Notes: generated from the sequence alone by a model not told the origin. Numbered from the stretch's first letter, positions 12,624-22,200 are shown. The stretch is DNA of 24,000 nucleotides from Micromonospora sp. CPCC 205371 (GCA_026130045.1 JAIBNX010000059.1:14913-38912); one strand, 5' to 3'. Program-made: numbers and translations.

Positions 12624-14036
12624 ATGCTGGTCGCCGGCGTCGACTCGTCCACACAGTCCTGCAAGGTCGTCATCCGTGACGCGGAGTCCGGAGAGCTGGT
12701 CCGCGAGGGGCGGGCCAGCCATCCGGACGGCACCGAGGTGCACCCCGACGCGTGGTGGTCGGCGCTCCAGGAGGCCGTGGCACAGGCCGGCGGGCTCGAC
12801 GACGTCGCCGCCGCGGCGGTGGCCGGGCAGCAGCACGGCATGGTGTGCCTCGACGAGCACGGCGAGGTCGTCCGGCCGGCCCTGCTGTGGAACGACACCC
12901 GCTCGGCCGGCGCCGCCAGCGACCTGATCGAGGAGTTCGGCGGCGGCCAGGCCTGGGCCGACGCGGTGGGTCTCGTACCGGTGGCCAGCTTCACCATCAC
13001 CAAGCTGCGGTGGCTGGCCCGCCACGAGCCAGAGGCCGCCGACCGCACCGCCGCCGTCTGCCTGCCGCACGACTGGCTGACCTGGAAGCTCGCCGGCGCG
13101 CAGGGGCTCGACGCCCTGCGCACCGACCGCAGCGACGCCAGCGGCACCGGGTACTGGTCCGCCGCCACCGGCGCGTACCGGCTCGACCTGCTGCGGCACG
13201 CGTTCGAGCGGGAGCCGCTCGTGCCGGTGGTGCTGGGCCCGACCGAGCCGGCGGGCGGGCTGCCCTCCGGTGCGCCGCTCGGCCCTGGTGCCGGCGACAA
13301 CGCCGCCGCTGGGCTGGGCGCCGGCGCCCTTCCGGGCGACGTCGTGGTCTCCATCGGCACCTCCGGCACGGTTTTCAGCGTCGCCGACACCCCGGCCGCC
13401 GACCCGACCGGCATCGTGGCCGGGTTCGCCGACTGCACCGGGCGGTACCTGCCGCTGGTGTGCACGCTCAACGCGGCCCGGGTGCTCGACGCGGCCGCCG
13501 CGCTGCTCGGGGTCGACCACGAAGAGCTGTCCCGCCTCGCGCTGAGTGCGCCTGCCGGCGCCGACGGGCTGGTGCTCGTGCCGTACCTGGAAGGCGAGCG
13601 CACCCCCAACCGGCCACTGGCGACCGGTTCGGTGCACGGGCTCACGCTCGGCACCTCGACACCGGCGCACCTGGCCCGAGCGGCCGTCGAAGGCATGCTG
13701 TGCGCCCTCGCCGACGGCCTCGACGCCCTGGTGGCGCAGGGCTCGACGGTCAACCGCGTGGTACTGGTCGGCGGCGGAGCCCGGTCCGAGGCGGTGCGCC
13801 GCATCGCACCCGAGGTCTTCGGGTGCCCGGTCGTCGTGCCGCCGCCAGGCGAGTACGTCGCCGATGGGGCGGCCCGGCAGGCGGCGTGGATCGCCGTCGG
13901 CGGTGCGGAGGCGCCGGCATGGACAGGGCGCGAGGCTCCGGAGTACGCCGCTCCGCAGTATGAGGGGAAGCCCGTGCCGCACATCCGGGAGCGGTACGCC
14001 TCAGCGCGCGACCACATCCTTCCCAGGGTCGCCTGA
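12624..14036 (+). CDS. xylB: xylulokinase (FGGY carbohydrate kinase family)
   Basis: [20 protein letters not shown]-terminus, then GDNAAAGLG and VLVGGGARS motifs. GGGAGGG precedes ATG 12624. The track start at 12333 lies inside xylA in another frame. Confidence 0.9.
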
Positions 14037-14058
14037 CAGGGCCGTATAGGGTGGTGCC

Positions 14059-14784
14059 GTGGTCGACCGGTGGGAGGCGGAGCTCATCGCGGCGCCATGG
14101 GTCAACCAGGACCTTTCGGTTGGCGCGGCGCGCGATTACGAGGTGCACGAGTTCGACCTGGGGTACGCCTTTTCGCGAGTCTTGCCGATGGGCACGGCCG
14201 AAGACGTGGGCTCCGGGCGGATCGTCATTGACAAGAAAAACGGCGAGCTGACGTACTGGCCGTCTTCCCCGATCCCGGAGATCGTCGACCAGTACCGGGC
14301 GTTCCGCGCCGATACGCCGGCGGCGCCGCTCAGCTGGGACCCGGTCGTGCGCGCCCGGCACGACCGCGTGCGGGCGGCCTACCCGGTCGACGTCACCCAC
14401 CTCGGGCTGCCTCGCGGCCGGATGCGGATGGCGCAGACCATGAAGGGCGAAGGCACGCCCAACCTGCACCCCCTGGTGCGTGAGTTCCTCGACGACCTTC
14501 CCGTGCGATACCGCGAACGCGGCAGCGACCGGTGCGCCGAGGTGGCCGCGCTCTCCGACGCCCTGCACGCCGAAGACGCCCGCCGCGCGCTGTCCGGCGA
14601 GCCGCCGATCACCCTCGACGACGCCCGCACCGGCCTGCTGGCCGGCGCCGACCTGGTCACGTACCGCGTCCGCGAGCCCGGCGACCCCACCGGTGGGCAG
14701 CCCACGTCGCCGTGCGTGTCGTGCCAGGCGCTGCTGCTTCACTTCGGCTTCGCCCTCCAGCCCCCTTCGGAGGACGCGGTATGA
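14059..14784 (+). CDS. deaminase-fold protein (YwqJ-like / toxin-type nucleic-acid deaminase signature) with an N-terminal YrhB-like module
   Basis: CAE at nt 14533-14541 and PCVSC at nt 14710-14724 form the C/H-A-E...PCxxC zinc signature of the cytidine-deaminase fold. The C-terminal ...PCVSCQALLLHFGF resembles the tails of actinobacterial YwqJ-related deaminases. The N-terminal ~80 aa (YEVHEFDLGYAF...GRIVIDKKNGELTYWPS) follows the YrhB/immunity-type pattern. I see no signal peptide or LXG, WXG or Rhs module. GTG start. Confidence 0.7.
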   Translation: MVDRWEAELIAAPWVNQDLSVGAARDYEVHEFDLGYAFSRVLPMGTAEDVGSGRIVIDKKNGELTYWPSSPIPEIVDQYRAFRADTPAAPLSWDPVVRARHDRVRAAYPVDVTHLGLPRGRMRMAQTMKGEGTPNLHPLVREFLDDLPVRYRERGSDRCAEVAALSDALHAEDARRALSGEPPITLDDARTGLLAGADLVTYRVREPGDPTGGQPTSPCVSCQALLLHFGFALQPPSEDAV

Positions 14785-15836
14785 GCGAGCGCTTCGCACC
14801 CGACGTCGAGGCCGCGCTGCGCGACGCCGGCTGGCATCCGGGCCGCACGCTCGACGCCGAGGCACTCGCCGAGATGCATCGCGCGGTCTCCGCGCAGAGC
14901 GGCGTCTTCGGCGGCAAGCTGACCGTCTCGTTCGCCGCCGATCCGGTACTGGCCGAGTTCGGGGGCCTGGTCATCGGTGGTGACCGGGAAGGGCTCCAGG
15001 TCAGTCCCCGCCCGTTCGCCATCGACCCCAGGATGGCCGCGCACAGCGTCGAGACGCTCATCGACGCCGGCCGCGCACTCGGCACCCGGCTCTACCCCAT
15101 CGGCGTTGAAGGGGACGACGAGGCGGTGCTCGCCATCGCCTCCACCGGTGCGGTGCTCGCCATCGACTCCGTCGGCGAGTGGCTCCTCGGCGACACGTTC
15201 GACGAGGCCCTGGAGACGCTTGTCACCGGTCGAGCGCCACGACTGCTGCCCACCGGCGGCATCCACGAGCCCGACTGGCTCCCGCCGCCCCCCGACGAGC
15301 TGGCACAGGGTGACCTGCTGCCGCAGTGGGGCCTGAAACGCCCGATCGGTGCGGCGTTCTACCTGCCCCGCACCCCGGCCAACCTGCATTACGTGTTGCT
15401 TCCCAGCCTGCTCAGCAGGATCGGCACCGTGCCCTGGGTCAACGAATCCGACCCCGTCACGTTCTGGGTGGAGTGGGGCGGTCACAGCTGCGAGGTGCGG
15501 CTGCTCGACCTGGTGGAAAACTACACGGTACTCGTGCTCGCCTTCGAACAGCGCGCATTCCGCGAGCGGGGTGGCCAGGCGGTCCAGGAGGCATTCCGCA
15601 ACGCTTGCGCGGGGCTCGCGCCCGACCTGGACGCGGCCTTCCTGCATGTGCGACGCGTGCCCAACCTGCTCCAGGTCGTGGTCGATCGGGCGTACGACGT
15701 GGTCACCGCCGACGGTGACGTGCTCGTCGACCAGGGCTTCGAGCTGCTGTACCTGACCGACAAGATGGACTACGGGGTGGCGCCCCGCGACGAGTTGCCG
15801 GTCACCGGCGGCCACCTCTTCGCCGGGTCGCTATGA
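14781..15836 (+). CDS. SUKH-3-type immunity-family protein with a ~190-aa uncharacterised C-terminal extension
   Basis: The ATG at 14781 overlaps the upstream stop (ATGA). The first ~160 aa match the SUKH-3 pattern as I recall it (AALRDAGWHPGR...LAEFGGL...PFAIDP...LYPIGVEGDDEAVLAIASTGAVLAID...GDTFDEALETLVTG). I recognise no motif in the C-terminal half. The track start at 14532 is an out-of-frame run inside the deaminase gene. Confidence 0.75.
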   Translation: MSERFAPDVEAALRDAGWHPGRTLDAEALAEMHRAVSAQSGVFGGKLTVSFAADPVLAEFGGLVIGGDREGLQVSPRPFAIDPRMAAHSVETLIDAGRALGTRLYPIGVEGDDEAVLAIASTGAVLAIDSVGEWLLGDTFDEALETLVTGRAPRLLPTGGIHEPDWLPPPPDELAQGDLLPQWGLKRPIGAAFYLPRTPANLHYVLLPSLLSRIGTVPWVNESDPVTFWVEWGGHSCEVRLLDLVENYTVLVLAFEQRAFRERGGQAVQEAFRNACAGLAPDLDAAFLHVRRVPNLLQVVVDRAYDVVTADGDVLVDQGFELLYLTDKMDYGVAPRDELPVTGGHLFAGSL

Positions 15837-17263
15837 AAGGCACACTGGCGGACGCCTGGGGCAAGCACCGCCGCAAGCTCGTCAAGGCGCTGCACCGCTC
15901 CGACCGGGACCGCTTCGACGCGCTGGTGCTCGACCTGCTCGACCTGGCGCTGCACGGCCAGCCGCCGACAGCGCCATGGCACCCGACGATCATGCGGATC
16001 GGCGTCGACACCGCGCTCACCCTCGCCAAGGAGGCGCCGCCGGACCCCGAGCTGCTGGCTGCCGCGGTCGCCCTGCCCTGGTTCGACAACGGCCTGCTGG
16101 GGCCGCGGTCGCCGCTGTCCGCGCGGGGCCGCCCGCTCGACTGGACCGCCGCGATGGTGCTGGCCATGGCGCCCGCCGGCCTGCGCGGAGAGGTCGAAAA
16201 CGACGGGTACCTCCGGCAGCTCGCCGCGTTGCCGCCGCTGCTGCGCGCCACCGCGATCCTCGAACGCGCCTTCGCCGGGGCGGCGCAGCAAGGCCCCGGG
16301 ATGCCGCTCGGGCCGGCGCTGGCGTTCAACGACGCCGAGGTGGCCACCCTGTCCACGGGCATCCCACCCAAGCTCCTCCCGCCCGGTGGGCTGCCGCCCG
16401 GCCCGCCGCCCGAGCCGCTCCCACCACCCGTCGGCAGCCCGGCCGAGGCGATCGAGCTCGTACGCAAGCACGCGAAGGAGCCGTTCGGCTCGTACCGGTT
16501 GTTCGTCGAGGGCGATCCGGGGTTCGTGGTCACCGGCACCGAGCTGGTGTACCAGGTGCGCTGGGACGTCCCGCTCGACCAGATCGTCACCATCGGCGGC
16601 CCGGTCACATATCCGGGCGACACCGAGGCCATCCGGCCCGACGAGCCGGGCTGGATCGTCGACCGAGTCACCCGCGAGGTGCACCCCGTCGATCTGGCCG
16701 GCTCGACGCTGGAGCGGTACGTGTCGGCCCGCCGCATCTTCCCGCTGCCGCCCGGCTGGCGCATCGACGGCCGCCCTCCCATCCCCGAGGGCCTGGCCGC
16801 CATGCTGCCGGTGTCCGCGGTGGCGACCGTGCAGCCAATGCTGGGCGAGGCGATCGCCCGGTACACGTCGGTGCTCGCCACCGAGTCGTGGCCGGACTAC
16901 CTGGTCGCGTGGCGGATCGCCTGCGAGACCGTAGACGCGCTGCTGACCGCGGGATACGGCGATCCGGACACTCTGACGGCGGGGCTGCTCGCCGCGCAGG
17001 GCCCCGCTCCGACCGACACTGTGGTCGGTGAGGCGTCACCGCTGTGGCACACGCTGGCTGGCCAGTACGCGCTGGCCGCCCGCCCGACGCCCGACGAGAC
17101 CGACGGCCCGGGCGCCGCCCGCCGCGCCGCCCGCCTGGCGTCGGCTTCGCCCGAGGTGAGGGCGGTGGCCGTAGCAAACGCCGAAGCCCGCCTGACCGTC
17201 GAGACGGCCCTCTTTGGCGTGGCTCCCGCCTCCCGCGAGGCCGAACTGTCCGCCCTCTCCTAA
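15833..17263 (+). CDS. hypothetical 476-aa protein: helical N-domain, poly-Pro linker, YrhB-like module, helical C-domain
   Basis: ATGA overlap with the SUKH-3 gene at 15833-15836. High GC3. Pro-rich linker PPKLLPPGGLPPGPPPEPLPPPVG. Residues ~202-290 (nt 16436-16702: AEAIELVRKH...YRLFVEG...GWIVDRVTREVHPV) repeat the YrhB-like pattern seen at the N-terminus of the deaminase. Function unknown. Confidence 0.6.
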   Translation: MKGTLADAWGKHRRKLVKALHRSDRDRFDALVLDLLDLALHGQPPTAPWHPTIMRIGVDTALTLAKEAPPDPELLAAAVALPWFDNGLLGPRSPLSARGRPLDWTAAMVLAMAPAGLRGEVENDGYLRQLAALPPLLRATAILERAFAGAAQQGPGMPLGPALAFNDAEVATLSTGIPPKLLPPGGLPPGPPPEPLPPPVGSPAEAIELVRKHAKEPFGSYRLFVEGDPGFVVTGTELVYQVRWDVPLDQIVTIGGPVTYPGDTEAIRPDEPGWIVDRVTREVHPVDLAGSTLERYVSARRIFPLPPGWRIDGRPPIPEGLAAMLPVSAVATVQPMLGEAIARYTSVLATESWPDYLVAWRIACETVDALLTAGYGDPDTLTAGLLAAQGPAPTDTVVGEASPLWHTLAGQYALAARPTPDETDGPGAARRAARLASASPEVRAVAVANAEARLTVETALFGVAPASREAELSALS

Positions 17264-17268
17264 CCCCC

Positions 17269-17325
17269 GCCCCGCGTGCGCCGCGCCGCCCCGCGTGCGC
17301 CGCGCCGCCCCGCGTGCGCCGCGCC
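17269..17325. repeat. perfect tandem repeat, 3 x 19 bp (GCCCCGCGTGCGCCGCGCC)
   Basis: Counted directly: units at 17269-17287, 17288-17306 and 17307-17325, followed by a partial GCC. It begins 6 nt after the TAA stop at 17261-17263. Confidence 0.95.
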
Positions 17326-17335
17326 GCCTCCCGCC

Positions 17336-17392
17336 GATCAAGGGCAAACGCACGCGGTTCGATCTGTTTTTCGCGTGCATTCGCCCTTGATC
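17336..17392. repeat. imperfect inverted repeat (21-nt arms, 19/21 paired, 15-nt T-rich loop) with a GATCAAGGGC core; terminator-like
   Basis: GATCAAGGGCAAACGCACGCG (17336-17356) pairs with CGCGTGCATTCGCCCTTGATC (17372-17392). The loop contains TTTTT. A further CCTTGATC copy lies at about 17404-17411. Confidence 0.7.
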
Positions 17393-17527
17393 CATGCGGA
17401 TCTCCTTGATCGACGCTGTTGTGTTCGGCGATCCGGCGCCGCATCAAGGCCGCGTCAGCGCGCCCGGCCGGCGCGCCACTAGGCGCCCCCACGCCCGGCC
17501 GGATAGTCCCGTTCCGCGCTGCCGAGC

Positions 17528-17904
17528 ATGCGTTTCTACAGCACCGTCGGCAACGTGATGGAGGGGACCGGCGAGCCCGGCCCCCAGCAATTCCTTCCCG
17601 CCCTCTTCGCGGCGTTGTACGGCACCGAGCCCTCGGACTGGGAGACGGAAGACGGCACTCGCCGGGACGGGCTTCCAGAGGGCGGCCGGTGGAAAGCGAC
17701 GGGCCGCCGCGGCGGGCCAGACGCGGGATTCCGCTTCGAGGCGCGCGGCGTCGTCGGCGAATCCACGTCCTACTCGGAGAGCCTTACCAGCTACAACCTG
17801 CCCGGGATGCGGCTGTCGTGGGACATGGAGAGGAAGCCGAGGCGCTATTCCGCGCCGTGTGGGAGCAGGTGTTCGGACAGTCACCGATGTTCGGCGGAGA
17901 CTAA
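17528..17904 (+). pseudogene. small immunity-like ORF that appears to need a frame change near 17825-17835 (1-nt deletion, sequencing error, or a genuinely different gene end)
   Basis: The frame of ATG 17528 reads as plausible protein up to ...NLPGMRLSWDME. It then becomes Arg/Cys/Ser-rich with rare codons (AGG, AGA, TGT) until 18022. The frame one nt back reads GEEAEALFRAVWEQVFGQSPMFGGD and stops at TAA 17902-17904. Confidence 0.35.
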
Positions 17905-17961
17905 GCGCGAGCGCCTTCCCGCTGGACACGAGGATGCGCCGGGGCCGGTAGAGTCGCCCAC

Positions 17962-18423
17962 GTGGACGCACTCGTCGAGTTCTCCCAGACAGGCAACCTG
18001 GGGCCGCTCCAGAAGGACATGACGGCGGTCGAGGTGGTGCGGCTACTCGGTCCGCCGGACAGCAGCAGGTGGATCCAGGGCGACGACAACGTCCAACACT
18101 ACCGGTACGGCAGCCTGTCGTTGCGGTTTAGGCGCCGCCTCGGAGACCCTGCGGGTGACGAAAATCTGCTCCTGCGGTCCCTCCGCCTGTCCTTCGACCG
18201 GCTCCCGTTTGAGCTGCCCGAGCCGGTTGCGAGTCGGCTGGAGCACCGCTGGTTGTCGACGCGCCTTGACGACGTACTGGCTGTGTTTTATCAAGCCAAC
18301 GCAGAGGCCGTGCTGGACTACGAGTCGGTCAAGGACGGTGAGATCTACCAGCGCTACCGCGTCGGTGAACGGCGAGTGTCACTCAATGTATTCGACGGGG
18401 AAGTCGTCGACATCGAAGGATAA
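17962..18423 (+). CDS. small hypothetical protein (153 aa), immunity-protein-like, convergent with the giant gene
   Basis: GTG start. The opening LVEFSQTGNLGPLQKDMTAVEVVRLLGPPDS...YGSLSLRF is a pattern common in small immunity-type proteins. GC is lower (about 55-65% in hand-counted 60-nt blocks) than in neighbouring genes. The TAA stop at 18421-18423 is only 7 nt from the stop of the giant gene. Confidence 0.65.
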   Translation: MDALVEFSQTGNLGPLQKDMTAVEVVRLLGPPDSSRWIQGDDNVQHYRYGSLSLRFRRRLGDPAGDENLLLRSLRLSFDRLPFELPEPVASRLEHRWLSTRLDDVLAVFYQANAEAVLDYESVKDGEIYQRYRVGERRVSLNVFDGEVVDIEG

Positions 18424-18430
18424 GTGTGGG

Positions 18431-19200
18431 TCAGTATGGTGGTTCGCGGCGTAGAACGACCATTGAATCCTTGATGTCGGGGTTATCAGGGAAGAGTTGA
18501 CTGAGCTTCCGGACGATGCGCTTCCCCAGATCGTTCAGCTCGGGTGCCACATCAGGATTCTCCGGGTCTGGGAAGATTTTGCCGCGGCTGATCTGCTCCG
18601 GTGCGTTCTCCATGACAGAGTCGTAGAGCCGGTCGAACTCCGCCTGATGGATCACGTACAGGTCCACGTCGAACGCGCGTAGGTCGGCGTGCGCCATGGC
18701 CTTGTGCGGTCCGCGCATGCCGTCCTGCATGCTGCCGATGTAACCGAGCGGCTCGCCCATGTAGTCGAATCGCGCGACGACCTCGTTGATCGCCGTCCGG
18801 TACTCCTCGTATCGCGCACGCCACGCCTGCTCGCCGAGCTCGACCGCCCGGTCGAATCCGGAGTCGCGCAGGTCTTCGATGCCGTTCCGGTCGACCCAGT
18901 CGCGGATCTCACCCAGCATGGCCTCGGTGCGGTCGACGAGCGGCTGCACCTCGGCACGGGCCGCCGCGTCAACGTCCGGTGGGAGGGCGCGCTCCGCAGA
19001 CGTCGATGGGAAGAACTCCTTGTACAGTGCCTTGAATTGCGTTAGAGCGTCCTTCTGGAACTCGCGAATCTGGGGCAGCATCTCACTTTCGAAGGCCTGC
19101 CGGAGTTCCGGCGGAAGATGCGTTTCAGCGTAGTAGCTGAAGTTGTCGATGGCTTCGTACGGCGCCCGGAACTCGTCCGACATCGGCAGGAACGAGCGCG
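18431..19200 (-). other. lower-GC C-terminal module (~250 aa) with a possible Pol-beta-type nucleotidyltransferase motif
   Basis: YIGS(1691)MQDGMRGPHKAMAHADLRAFD(1712)VD(1714)LYVI at nt 18662-18742 resembles hG[GS]...D-h-D-h, with a longer-than-usual spacer. Hand counts give about 54-59% GC for 18431-18630 and about 55% for 19021-19140, against about 75% at 21001-21060. Confidence 0.3.
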
Positions 19201-22200
19201 CCTTCGAGCTGGCACCCACCACACTGTCGGGATCGGCCATCGTGGAAACGATGGCTCGGGCGCCGTCGGACATCTCGGCCCACACCTCGTCGCGGCGTGC
19301 CTGTGTGCCCGGGTCCGGGTCGGTGCGGTGCTCCGGATCGAGGATGCCGAGCCGCTCGGCCTGGGCCCGGAACTCGCGGGTCAGTCGCGCGTCCTCCTGC
19401 GCCCACGCTTCACGTTGTGCCGCGGGCGCGTCCGTGGCGTGCTTGAGCTGATGCTGTACGCGCGCCTGTTCCGTGGCGAGCACGTCCAACTGCCGGAGTC
19501 CGCCCGCGTCGGGGCGACCGCCCGTCTCGACGGCGACCACAGTGGTCACCTGATCGACGAGTGCCCGGACGACGTCCTCACGGCCAATCGTCTCGGAGAT
19601 CCGGATGATGTGCTCGCCAGCCTGGGAGTCGAAGCGACTCGTGGTCCAGCCGTCGGCGACCGGCCCGACCTCGACGCGCATGGCGATGGCGCCGCCGTCC
19701 GGCGAGGAGATGCGCAGGGTTTCGCCACTCACCTGCACCCAGTCGTGAGGGAAGTACGGCCGTACCTCCGCCAACGCGCGAGGTAGCTCCGACCGGACCG
19801 CAGCCGCCGGTGTCTCCGGGTGGCCGCCGGGCGGCTCCGCGTGTGGCGGGCCGGTGGGCGGATCGGCGTGCGGTGCGCCTTCCGGCGCCTCCGGGCGCGG
19901 AGGCGGCGTCGGGCCGCCGTCGGGCGGCCGCGGTCCGTCCGGGGGTGGCGGGGCGTCGACCGGGCGCGTGCCGTCGATGACGTGTACGCGGTGCGGGAGC
20001 TCTGCGCCCGTCACCGGATCCTTGATCCGGATTCCCTCCAGGATCGCCGCCACGTCCGGATCCACGCCGCGTGTGAAGTGCCACTCCAGGCGTGGCGGGT
20101 GGCCGTCGACGTGGTGCGCGGTGTCGAACACGAGCGCACGCAGCTGCGTCTCGATCTGGCGGGTGAACTTGCCTATGTTCTTACTGCCCGGGCCGAACGG
20201 GTTGTAGTTCTTGGCATCTCGCCAAACCCGGCCGCCCTCGGCCACCACGTCGACATCGGTCTCGTGCAGCTTGCCATCGGGACCGACCGCCGAGATGTCC
20301 TTGCTGACCTCCACCACGCCGTGGGACCGTTCCGCGAGGATCAACTCGCCCTCGATACCCCGGATGTTGTTGCCGTGGTCACGGGCGAGTTGCACGGATG
20401 GGTCGCCCTTGCCCTGCTGCTCCGCCCGCAACGGCGCGACCTCGTTACGGACGTCCCCGAGCCAGCTTTCGGTGCCGCGGACCTCGGGGTGGGTGCGCGC
20501 GTACTCCTCGATCCGGCTGCGCACCTCGTCCGCGGCGCGCAATTGGTTGTCGATCTCGCGCAGGACCTCGGGCGGCGGTGGCTGGATCGCGTCCTTGGCG
20601 GCCTGCTTCGCCACCTCCGCCTCGTGCTTGTCGATCAGTGAGTCTTCGAGCGTGCGCCCGTTCTGGACGGCCTTCCGCTCCATGTTGTCCAGTGCCGTCT
20701 CGAACCGCTCGCCGACCTTGTCGTACAGCCGCTCGAACTGCTCGCGGGCACGCTGGTCCTGCAGCGCGTCGTACCGGTCACGCAGGTTCTCTGGCAGGTT
20801 GTCGCGGTTGAACGGCTCCCGTGCGGCTCCCGGCGCCCCCGGGTCGGTCAGCCGCTCATTGCGCAGTTGGCTGTGCCACGCCTCGGCGGCGTCCTGGAAC
20901 TGGTCGCGAGTGGCCCGGTCCTTGGCCGCCTCGGCTCGTTCGGCGGCGGCGGTCTGCTCGGCCGTCTGCGCATCCTGACGGTGCTGCGCGGCGCGCGCTG
21001 CCGCGTCGTCGCGGACCTGTGCGTGCTGGTCGGCCTCCACCCGGTGCTGGTGGGCGACCTGGGGGTCGACCGGGTCCCACTGGCGGGCCCGCTCGGCGGC
21101 GGCCGCCCGGCGCTGCTCGGCGGCGTGTGCCGCCTGGGTGTCGCGTGCCGCATGCTGGCGGCTCGACTCGGCGGCCTGTGCGTGCTGGTTGGCCCGCTGG
21201 TCGTGCGCCTCGGCGGAGCGCTGGTAGTGCTCCGCGCCCCGGTACTGGCTGGCCGCCTTCTCCGCCGCTTCGGCCATCCGGTCCTGGTGCTGGGCGCGCC
21301 CCTCCTCCAGTTGCCGGACCGGGTCGTTCGGCGGGTGCTGGGCGGCCTGCTGCCGGTGCTGCGCGGCCTCCGCCCTCGCCTGGGCGGCCTGCTGGTCGTG
21401 GGCGTTCGCGGCCTGGTCGACGTGCTGCCTGTACCGGGCCTCGGACTGCTGCGCGCGTTGCTCGTGCGCCTGGGCGGCCTGCTCGTGCTGACGAGCCGCC
21501 TGCTCCGCATAGCCGCGCCGGTTTTCGAAGTTGCTGGCCGCCTCGGTGGCCCGCTGCTGCTGGAGCTCCGCCTGCTGGCGCAGGCCCTCGTGCTCGTGCG
21601 CGCGGACGCGGTGCGCGTTGGCTTCCTGCCGCGCATGCTGCGCCTGCTCGCGGTGGTGCCGCTCCATCTGTTCGGCGTGGCGTGCCTGCTCGGGCGTACC
21701 CCGGCTTTGGCTCTCCGCCCACTGGCGGGCCGCGGCTTCGTGCTGCTGCGCGACCTGGTCGCGGCGCGCGCCCTCATTCCACGCCGCGTCGCGGTCGGCC
21801 CGGTGGGTGGCCGCGCGGTTCGCGGCGTCCTGTGATTGGGTACGCGCAGCCTGCGCGTCGTTGGCGTGCTGCTGCGCGTCCGTTCTGGCCTTGTTCGCGA
21901 GGTCGGTCTGTTGCCGTGCCTGGTCGGCCTCGGCGCGGGCGGTGCCGTGCTCGGCGTGCGCGCCCTGCGTGGCGCGCACGTCCGGCGGCTGGTGCGCCAG
22001 GTACTCCGGGGTGAGCGCCCTGTCGTTCCAGGTGCCGGCGGGCCGGTCGGCGAAGGGCATTGGCCGCGCGTTGCCGTCCACGACCAGCGCGTCCATGGCC
22101 GTGATCTGGGTTCGGCTGTGGATCGGGTTCTGGACGACCTGCCCGGTGTCGGCGTCGACGAACTGCGTGCCGTGGGGCGTGTCGACCGCCGTCACGACCT

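Follow-up and report, generated by a model that had tools for sequence, protein, structure and literature searches.

A candidate toxin–immunity cassette of Micromonospora pairing a YwqJ-type deaminase that carries an Imm35-like module with a SUKH-3 protein

We analysed three overlapping open reading frames (ORFs) on the plus strand of a 24-kb stretch of DNA from Micromonospora sp. CPCC 205371 (24,000 nucleotides, ~72% GC), which is called the window below. ORF1 combines an Imm35/YrhB-like N-terminal module with a deaminase domain of the YwqJ clade, ORF2 begins with a SUKH-3 domain, and a giant protein with a Tox-PL1 domain is encoded convergently beside the cassette. The deaminase and the SUKH-3 protein very probably form a toxin–immunity pair, and we consider it probable that the cassette is a component of a toxin island linked to type VII secretion systems (T7SSs). 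Taken as a whole, we read it with modest confidence as a variant polymorphic toxin–immunity cassette of such islands, in which the N-terminal module would dock on the Tox-PL1 domain of the giant. The observations behind this reading are domain identities, conservation, operon structure and genomic linkage.

The deaminase and its SUKH-3 partner

ORF1 (14059–14784) has a GTG start and encodes 241 aa, ORF2 (14781–15836) encodes 351 aa and ORF3 (15833–17263) encodes 476 aa. The ATGA start/stop overlaps that chain them were located at 14781–14784 and 15833–15836, as the original prediction had claimed, and from these overlaps the three ORFs appear to be tightly coupled in translation. The GC content at third codon positions (GC3) of ORF1–3 was 0.90–0.92, which is typical of genes in a window of 72% GC, so we regard all three as real genes. 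The closest loci were found in Phytohabitans aurantiacus (L008; ORF1 93% identical) and Micromonospora sp. CPCC 206061 (L009; 92%). Compared with these two, the ratio of nonsynonymous to synonymous substitution rates (dN/dS) of ORF1–3 was 0.12–0.32.

Residues 113–229 of ORF1 (14395–14745) matched the Pfam YwqJ-deaminase model PF14431 (E=5.9e-25, 88.5 bits; gathering cutoff 25.9). The predicted motifs were confirmed in position, with C159-A-E161 at 14533–14541 and P218-C-V-S-C222 at 14710–14724. The original prediction had staked its deaminase assignment on conservation of the CAE and PCxxC residues, and C159, E161, P218, C219 and C222 were indeed near-invariant (kept in 31 of 33 aligned homologues; consensus C[AS]E and PCxSC), while H137 was invariant. 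A database search returned 188 homologues of ORF1 from many actinomycete lineages, nearly all of them full-length at ~240 aa and carrying the NCBI name 'YwqJ-related putative deaminase'. Full-length conservation extended across many actinomycete genera at 45–93% identity.

The AlphaFold2 (AF2) model of ORF1 has two domains (predicted local distance difference test, pLDDT, 91.4; predicted template modelling score, pTM, 0.87). The deaminase core spans residues 95–228, and H137 sits between the strand 122–126 and the catalytic helix 160–178. With Foldseek, nearly all top matches in the PDB were blasticidin-S and cytidine deaminases, at weak E values (0.09–1); a PDB sequence search found no solved relative of ORF1, ORF2 or ORF3. 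We conclude that the assignment of ORF1 as an active zinc deaminase toxin of the YwqJ clade is well supported, the activity itself being predicted. Because the catalytic residues are conserved, this activity is likely to be selected for, and ORF1 does not look like a relic.

Two homologues, P0047 and P0056 (loci L021 and L024), have HAE in place of CAE, and both of their downstream zinc cysteines are replaced by serine (PPSLSS). Judging from these substitutions, the two deaminases are probably catalytically dead. They still adjoin a SUKH-3 despite the lost cysteines.

The prototype of the family is Bacillus subtilis YwqJ, a T7SSb-delivered deaminase of cytidine in single-stranded DNA (ssDNA) that is neutralized by YwqK, as reported in 2026 (PMC13648612). 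The earlier statement that the substrate is not known is therefore partly outdated; by analogy with YwqJ, ORF1 probably deaminates cytidine in ssDNA. The YwqJ–YwqK(–YwqL) operon and the cassette of the window share their order, a PF14431 deaminase followed by a SUKH-3-type immunity gene and a third gene, and the Zn/Glu catalytic motifs are present in both deaminases. The differences are threefold. YwqJ has LXG and PT-TG trafficking domains and small helical partners, whereas ORF1 has an alpha/beta module of the Imm35-like type; the first zinc ligand of ORF1 is Cys and not His; and the third gene, ORF3, encodes neither an endonuclease V nor any other known domain.

Residues 5–150 of ORF2 (14793–15230) matched the full length of the SUKH-3 model PF14433 (positions 1–146; E=5.5e-35, 121 bits; cutoff 23), and ORF2 is 54% identical to its orthologue in M. 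zhanjiangensis. The additional ~190 aa that had been noted behind the SUKH-3 domain correspond to a lineage-restricted C-terminal extension of ~195 aa (15246–15833). We compared 32 distinct module–deaminase loci (31 other genomes and the window, each with the available flank of up to 10 kb), and SUKH-3 was adjacent to the deaminase or fused with it in 29 of them. SUKH3 has been described as the immunity protein of YwqJ, which occurs in polytoxins together with a papain-like peptidase (PMC3239186). In the model that we favour, the ORF1 deaminase would be made as a toxin, and ORF2, translated in step with it, would bind and block the deaminase through its SUKH-3 domain in the producer cell.

The N-terminal module and the architecture that it marks

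The first 92 residues of ORF1 (14059–14334) precede the deaminase domain, and AF2 folds residues 4–85 as a helix, four strands and a helix. The Pfam Imm35 model (PF15567), which recognizes Escherichia coli YrhB at E=4e-23, gave no match at E≤10 to residues 1–112 of ORF1 or to the middle domain of ORF3. A profile of the module found 237 matches at E≤0.001 among 1.84 billion representative proteins, with the module N-terminal in most. A hidden Markov model (HMM) built from 134 module sequences scored full-length E. coli YrhB at 20.1 bits (best of 2000 shuffles, 9.5), and hhalign aligned the module profile with YrhB at a probability of 90.7% (E=1.3e-6, 80 columns). The alignment is collinear over the full length and includes the IIDKxSGE hairpin motif. 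With narrow alignments the hhalign comparison was no more than suggestive (E=0.004–0.03), and it became convincing only with the 134-sequence profile. On the strength of the HMM score and hhalign we accept that the N-terminus is of the YrhB type, as had been proposed, although Pfam's Imm35 model misses it, and we place the module in a divergent branch of the Imm35 superfamily. Three long repeat proteins recovered in the module search (P0167, P0181 and P0250) were rejected as spurious; they matched many times, with the hairpin motif only.

The Imm35 model matched none of 143 module-bearing proteins, in which only four Pfam partners recurred: SUKH-3 (42), the YwqJ-deaminase (26), the XOO_2897-deaminase (8) and SUKH-4 (8). 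The module resembles the Imm35/YrhB family in its size (~90 aa) and in having a Tox-PL1 toxin nearby in the window, as reported for Imm35, and differs from it in falling below the Pfam model, in being fused to deaminase toxins and in having partners that are almost exclusively deaminases and SUKH-3/4. Module, YwqJ and SUKH-3 were found in a single chain in 18 representatives and split in 10 (50% clustering). Single chains of module, XOO_2897 and SUKH-4 number at least five, confirmed by scanning the proteins singly, which placed XOO_2897 and then SUKH-4 behind the module in the same polypeptide; eight representatives match each of the two Pfam models. Another 26 representatives are module–SUKH-3 proteins. 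Since the module is joined to two deaminase clades that pair with different SUKH families, we read it as the mark of a recurrent unit of Imm35-like module, deaminase and cognate SUKH domain, devoid of a secretion domain and often contained in one polypeptide.

A constant N-terminal part followed by alternative C-terminal toxins, here YwqJ (26) or XOO_2897 (8), is also the pattern of polymorphic toxins. By the definition of Zhang et al. (2012) these carry an N-terminal trafficking domain, and in ORF1 an immunity-type module stands in that place. A Pfam scan of ORF1–3 gave no match to WXG100, LXG, Rhs or PAAR, and the three proteins have neither a hydrophobic segment of transmembrane grade (maximum KD19 1.1–1.5) nor a signal-peptide-like N-terminus. 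The earlier remark that ORF1 has no recognizable trafficking module is borne out by both the domain scan and the hydrophobicity check. Because ORF1 is without a trafficking domain and lies below the Pfam Imm35 threshold, the cassette is not a plain member of either the polymorphic toxins or the Imm35 family. Its parts (YwqJ deaminase, SUKH-3, Imm35 superfamily and Tox-PL1) are already known, and its logic is that of polymorphic toxins and their immunity proteins. The architecture appears new: our literature search, with thin coverage of subscription journals, turned up no account of the Imm35-like–deaminase–SUKH arrangement.

Several of these features would equally suit a stand-alone cytoplasmic toxin–antitoxin or abortive-infection system, as the original prediction had proposed. 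The deaminase would then be intracellular and restrained by SUKH-3, which would act in trans here and in cis where relatives have the two fused, until a phage protein or incoming toxin bound the Imm35-like or SUKH module, whereupon it would mutate replicating single-stranded DNA. The missing secretion signal and the tight translational coupling of ORF1–3 fit this explanation, as do the frequent module–deaminase–SUKH chains, built independently with YwqJ/SUKH-3 and XOO_2897/SUKH-4, and a CHAT protease domain that is added in one relative. The intracellular idea is kept alive by the many relatives in which the deaminase is covalently fused to a SUKH immunity domain, which is awkward for export. 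The fused relatives have a parallel in EzeT and CapRel, which we take to be single-polypeptide toxin–antitoxins with a cis-acting antitoxin. The likeness is that toxin and cognate inhibitor domains are held in one signal-less cytoplasmic protein; the folds, however, are unrelated, the version in the window is split into two genes, and no phage link was found.

A further point in favour of a stand-alone system is a cluster of three signal-less units of toxin and cognate SUKH in Streptomyces sp. PLK1-5 (L038, 6086–10932). One unit is a 398-aa protein with a WHH nuclease and SMI1_KNR4, another an 827-aa protein composed of the N-module, a Pro-rich linker, an XOO_2897 deaminase and SUKH-4, and the third a YwqJ deaminase lacking the module that is followed by SUKH-3. 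This cluster suggests that covalent toxin–immunity units are a wider actinomycete theme.

Linkage to type VII secretion and toxin genes

The right flank of the cassette, which the original prediction had overlooked, contains a 153-aa ORF (17962–18423, plus strand) and, convergent with it, the gene of a 1790-aa protein (18431–23803, minus strand). Residues 408–535 of the giant (22199–22582) matched the papain-fold Tox-PL1/Gln_amidase model PF15644 (E=2.8e-25), and the protein as a whole looks like a multi-domain polytoxin. Pfam detected no WXG100 in its other regions or upstream of it, up to the end of the window at 24000. By eye, a PD-(D/E)xK-like motif is visible at ~1230–1260 and a nucleotidyltransferase-like GS...DxD near the C-terminus; Pfam finds neither. 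A small ORF of ~75 aa (VGILVDFRKVREDNQTVEYLFGYPEMDRR...; 23776–24000, minus strand) lies upstream of the giant gene with a slight overlap. This ORF is conserved in L008 and L009, and Pfam gives no match to it.

Across the 32 loci, eccB, eccC or eccD lay within the flank in nine, a mycP-like S8 peptidase gene only in four, a Tox-PL1 domain or giant-homologous segments in ~13 and a WXG100_2-like domain in seven. Genes of the eccB/C/D or mycP-like type were thus found within 10 kb in 13 loci, none of which is the window, L008 or L009. Any such T7SS, Tox-PL1 or WXG100_2 feature was found in 25/32 loci, far above the chance expectation, which we estimate at <1% for a 20-kb segment when an 8-Mb genome has one to three T7SS loci. 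The remaining seven loci, with neither a secretion nor a toxin neighbour, would suit a stand-alone intracellular system. Against that explanation stand the 25 linked loci and the search for defence signatures: no PADLOC model matched ORF1–3, the 153-aa ORF or the giant, and we saw no phage, integrase, mobile-element or defence-island neighbours in the neighbourhoods examined. On account of these negative results we treat the defence reading as a minority rival and regard it as rather unlikely. An isolated cytoplasmic toxin–antitoxin or abortive-infection system is not supported in the form originally stated, since the cassette lies beside a Tox-PL1 giant and its relatives are mostly toxin- or T7SS-linked; overall, the proposal was partly supported.

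The gene order of the window, xylR–xylA–xylB–ORF1–ORF2–ORF3–153-aa ORF–giant, is the same in L008 and L009. Homologues of the giant lie near the cassette in L008, L009, L014, L015, L017 and L034. The full three-gene cassette, with the ORF2 extension and ORF3, was recovered from ~10 loci of Micromonosporaceae and Actinomadura, often beside eccC–eccD–eccB–mycP, so that the predicted co-conservation of the three genes was found. In Carbonactinospora the order is a WXG100_2 giant, a Gln_amidase+Scabin toxin, an SseB protein, a 554-aa protein, the deaminase and a short SUKH-3. A 184-aa family with no Pfam match (L002, 7284–7838; paralogues in L010, L013, L016 and L017), which is absent from the window, occurs in four to five tandem diverged copies (29–65% identity) around cassette and T7SS genes and resembles an immunity array.

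Micromonospora T7SS clusters contain the same module in a different setting. Between eccB and eccD they carry one to three tandem genes in which the module is fused to SUKH-3 alone, and Tox-PL1 was present in 7/7 such loci. A giant protein of these clusters comprises WXG100_2 (17–163), a YwqJ-deaminase (980–1125) and Gln_amidase (1215–1319). The module–SUKH-3 protein is just what one would expect of the immunity partner of a two-domain polytoxin, having two domains itself, one for each toxin domain, and such ordinary immunity inside T7SS clusters is a further argument against a stand-alone defence role of the module. The literature associates Imm35 specifically with Tox-PL1 and considers it a possible peptidase inhibitor (PMC3482391). 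The cassette of the window and these WXG100-led polytoxins (loci L039–L048) share the taxonomic family, the island type and the same four domain types, YwqJ, Tox-PL1, Imm35-like and SUKH-3. They differ in the linkage of the domains. In the polytoxins the deaminase belongs covalently to a secreted WXG100 toxin, and SUKH-3 is the fusion partner of the Imm35-like module. In the window the deaminase is no part of the giant and is joined instead to the Imm35-like module, while SUKH-3 is a protein of its own with a new extension.

We infer docking from this comparison: YwqJ and Tox-PL1 are fused in the Micromonospora polytoxins, while here the giant is without YwqJ and a separate protein provides the deaminase, joined to the fold of a Tox-PL1 partner. 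The protein-binding module at the N-terminus of ORF1 would dock on the Tox-PL1 domain of the convergently encoded giant, and docking would neutralize Tox-PL1 in the producer, or tether the small deaminase to the giant, or both. In effect, the covalent WXG100–YwqJ–Tox-PL1 polytoxins of Micromonospora would be matched here by a non-covalent assembly. ORF3, the ORF2 extension and the 153-aa ORF would serve the same island as additional immunity or accessory proteins. We put forward the binding of the module to Tox-PL1 as a tentative proposal, rather doubtful when taken by itself, and consider it unlikely that the deaminase is exported by hitch-hiking.

ORF3 had no match in Pfam or NCBIfam, and neither database returned anything useful at E≤10 for the N-terminus of ORF1, the ORF2 extension or three segments of ORF3. 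The 32 detected homologues of ORF3 are all hypothetical proteins. Its AF2 model (pLDDT 89.2, pTM 0.88) confirms the predicted layout, with helical domains at residues 1–173 and 317–476 around an alpha/beta domain at ~203–300 (16439–16732), and its C-terminal domain is shared with the 554-aa protein upstream of the Carbonactinospora deaminase. The proposed YrhB-like nature of the middle domain fared less well. The element order is that of the N-module and the GWIVDRVTRE hairpin resembles the VIDRxTGE of the module; the hhalign matches were weak (E=0.002 with YrhB over 37 columns and E=0.008 with the broad module profile; probability 5–13%). An active HD phosphohydrolase was also considered for ORF3 and rejected: the Foldseek matches to small alarmone hydrolases and lmo0812 were weak (E≥0.68), and an alignment of 27 sequences had no invariant His or HD motif. 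The HD fold is kept as a lead, since an HD hydrolase is named by Iyer et al. among the polytoxin partners of YwqJ.

The ORF2 extension is nearly always fused to SUKH-3 and rarely found alone. Stand-alone homologues lie upstream of the deaminase in distant metagenome-assembled genomes (L034, 6241–7611; L026, 8110–8652; L035, 7652–8212), and the one in L034 comes directly after a giant homologue ends, where an immunity gene would usually lie. This placement hints at a role of the extension as an immunity domain for the middle region of the giant. The 153-aa ORF has no Pfam match and is conserved in L008 and L009 (dN/dS ~0.2). It starts 33 bp after ORF3 in L009 and is therefore the fourth operon gene there, as it probably is in the window. 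Identity to the window over the C-terminal 290 aa of the giant and the 153-aa ORF was 86% and 76% in L008 and 96% and 93% in L009, while the flanking parts behave otherwise; GC content dips to 0.64–0.66 over the same two regions. This mosaic co-divergence and the GC dip suggest that the tip of the giant and its immunity gene were swapped as a unit, their convergent arrangement being unusual, and make the 153-aa ORF a candidate immunity protein for the C-terminal domain of the giant.

Two further explanations draw on this flank. In one, the plus-strand operon is mainly a multi-domain immunity set against the giant, and the deaminase with its SUKH-3 is a passenger captured by fusion that has no separate delivery. 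The N-module of ORF1, and perhaps the middle domain of ORF3, would act on Tox-PL1, the ORF2 extension on the middle of the giant and the 153-aa ORF on its C-terminus. The reported tie between Imm35 and Tox-PL1 (PMC3482391), the place of the 153-aa ORF in the L009 operon and its co-variation with the giant C-terminus, the immunity position of the L034 homologue, and the co-occurrence of ORF2-extension and ORF3 homologues with giant homologues (the window, L008, L009, L014, L015, L017 and L034) all agree with this. However, the conserved catalytic residues show the hand of selection for deaminase activity, L010, L016 and L018 carry the three-gene cassette with no giant within 10 kb, and the Imm35-like status of the ORF3 domain is tentative. 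We consider such a role as mainly an immunity set quite improbable.

In the other, ORF1 would be an orphan toxin cassette, a silent spare part without trafficking domain that recombination could swap onto the 3' end of a neighbouring toxin gene, as has been suggested for polymorphic toxins. A full-length giant toxin gene does adjoin the operon, and the mosaic divergence of the giant C-terminus and the 153-aa ORF fits cassette exchange. Yet ORF1 begins with a start codon of its own, is not encoded on the same strand as the giant and is translationally coupled to ORF2 and ORF3; it is full-length across many genera and under purifying selection, and its N-terminal part is a globular, widely distributed domain and not a recombination stub. 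This explanation is very unlikely.

The spacer after ORF3 (17264–17961) is polymorphic for indels, measuring 33 bp in L009, ~0.4 kb in L008 and ~0.7 kb in the window. In the window it contains a perfect tandem repeat (19 bp, 3.3 copies; 17267–17328), a hairpin with 21-nt arms (17336–17392) that is conserved in L008, and an apparent frameshifted ORF remnant (~17528–17904). The spacer could represent a small insertion of the mobile or REP-like kind. The left flank is housekeeping in character (lutABC, a GntR regulator, a lactonase and xylR/xylA/xylB), and the distance from the xylB stop codon to the GTG of ORF1 is 22 bp (14037–14058) in the window, L008 and L009. Transcripts of the toxin cassette may arise by read-through from the xylose operon. 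A promoter and terminator scan of 13700–18600 returned nothing, using sigma-70/E. coli rules that are uninformative for an actinomycete of 72% GC.

Docking, export and the role of the module

Several observations weigh against the docking model and, in particular, against export. The first concerns secretion: ORF1–3 and the giant are without a WXG100 or LXG domain, a signal peptide or a transmembrane segment, and no T7SS gene lies in the 24-kb window or in the 20-kb loci of L008 and L009. The second is that Tox-PL1 occurs within 10 kb of the cassette in only ~13/32 loci. The third is the excess of single-chain over split forms among the YwqJ/SUKH-3 representatives. An immunity domain in the same chain sits badly with export of the toxin and suggests a self-inhibited intracellular enzyme, and a module that inhibits Tox-PL1 would be counter-productive if it were delivered together with Tox-PL1. 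Export is thus argued against by the missing secretion signal, the missing T7SS genes of the window and the many covalent toxin–immunity fusions.

A more novel possibility is that the Imm35-like module, instead of being a plain immunity domain, is a dedicated sensor or adaptor that would define a new class of signal-less deaminase systems, built independently around two deaminase clades. We regard this as unlikely, and two versions of it fit the data. As an adaptor, the module would attach a compact deaminase, through non-covalent contacts with Tox-PL1, to a giant T7SS toxin, so that the deaminase would hitch-hike by means of an immunity fold. As part of a sensor, it would belong to an intracellular deaminase that inhibits itself until its module or SUKH domain is contacted by a phage protein or an incoming Tox-PL1 toxin; such a system would be a bacterial counterpart of APOBEC-type restriction.

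Taken together, the toxin–immunity core of the cassette is ordinary; its architecture, and the question of export versus intracellular action, are not. The cassette marks toxin islands linked to the actinobacterial T7SS (T7SSa outside the mycobacteria), whereas the experimental work on antibacterial T7SS toxins that we found in the searchable literature, where subscription journals are thinly covered, concerns only Firmicutes. The family also offers raw material for base editors, with a deaminase domain of ~140 aa, a ready-made inhibitor in SUKH-3, hundreds of natural variants and a prototype that acts on cytidines in ssDNA. If docking proves true, the cassette would represent a third organization of deaminase toxins, distinct both from deaminases that form the C-terminus of a secreted giant and from classical toxin–antitoxin pairs, in which an immunity-type fold would be put to new use as the handle by which a small toxin is coupled to a large one or senses it.

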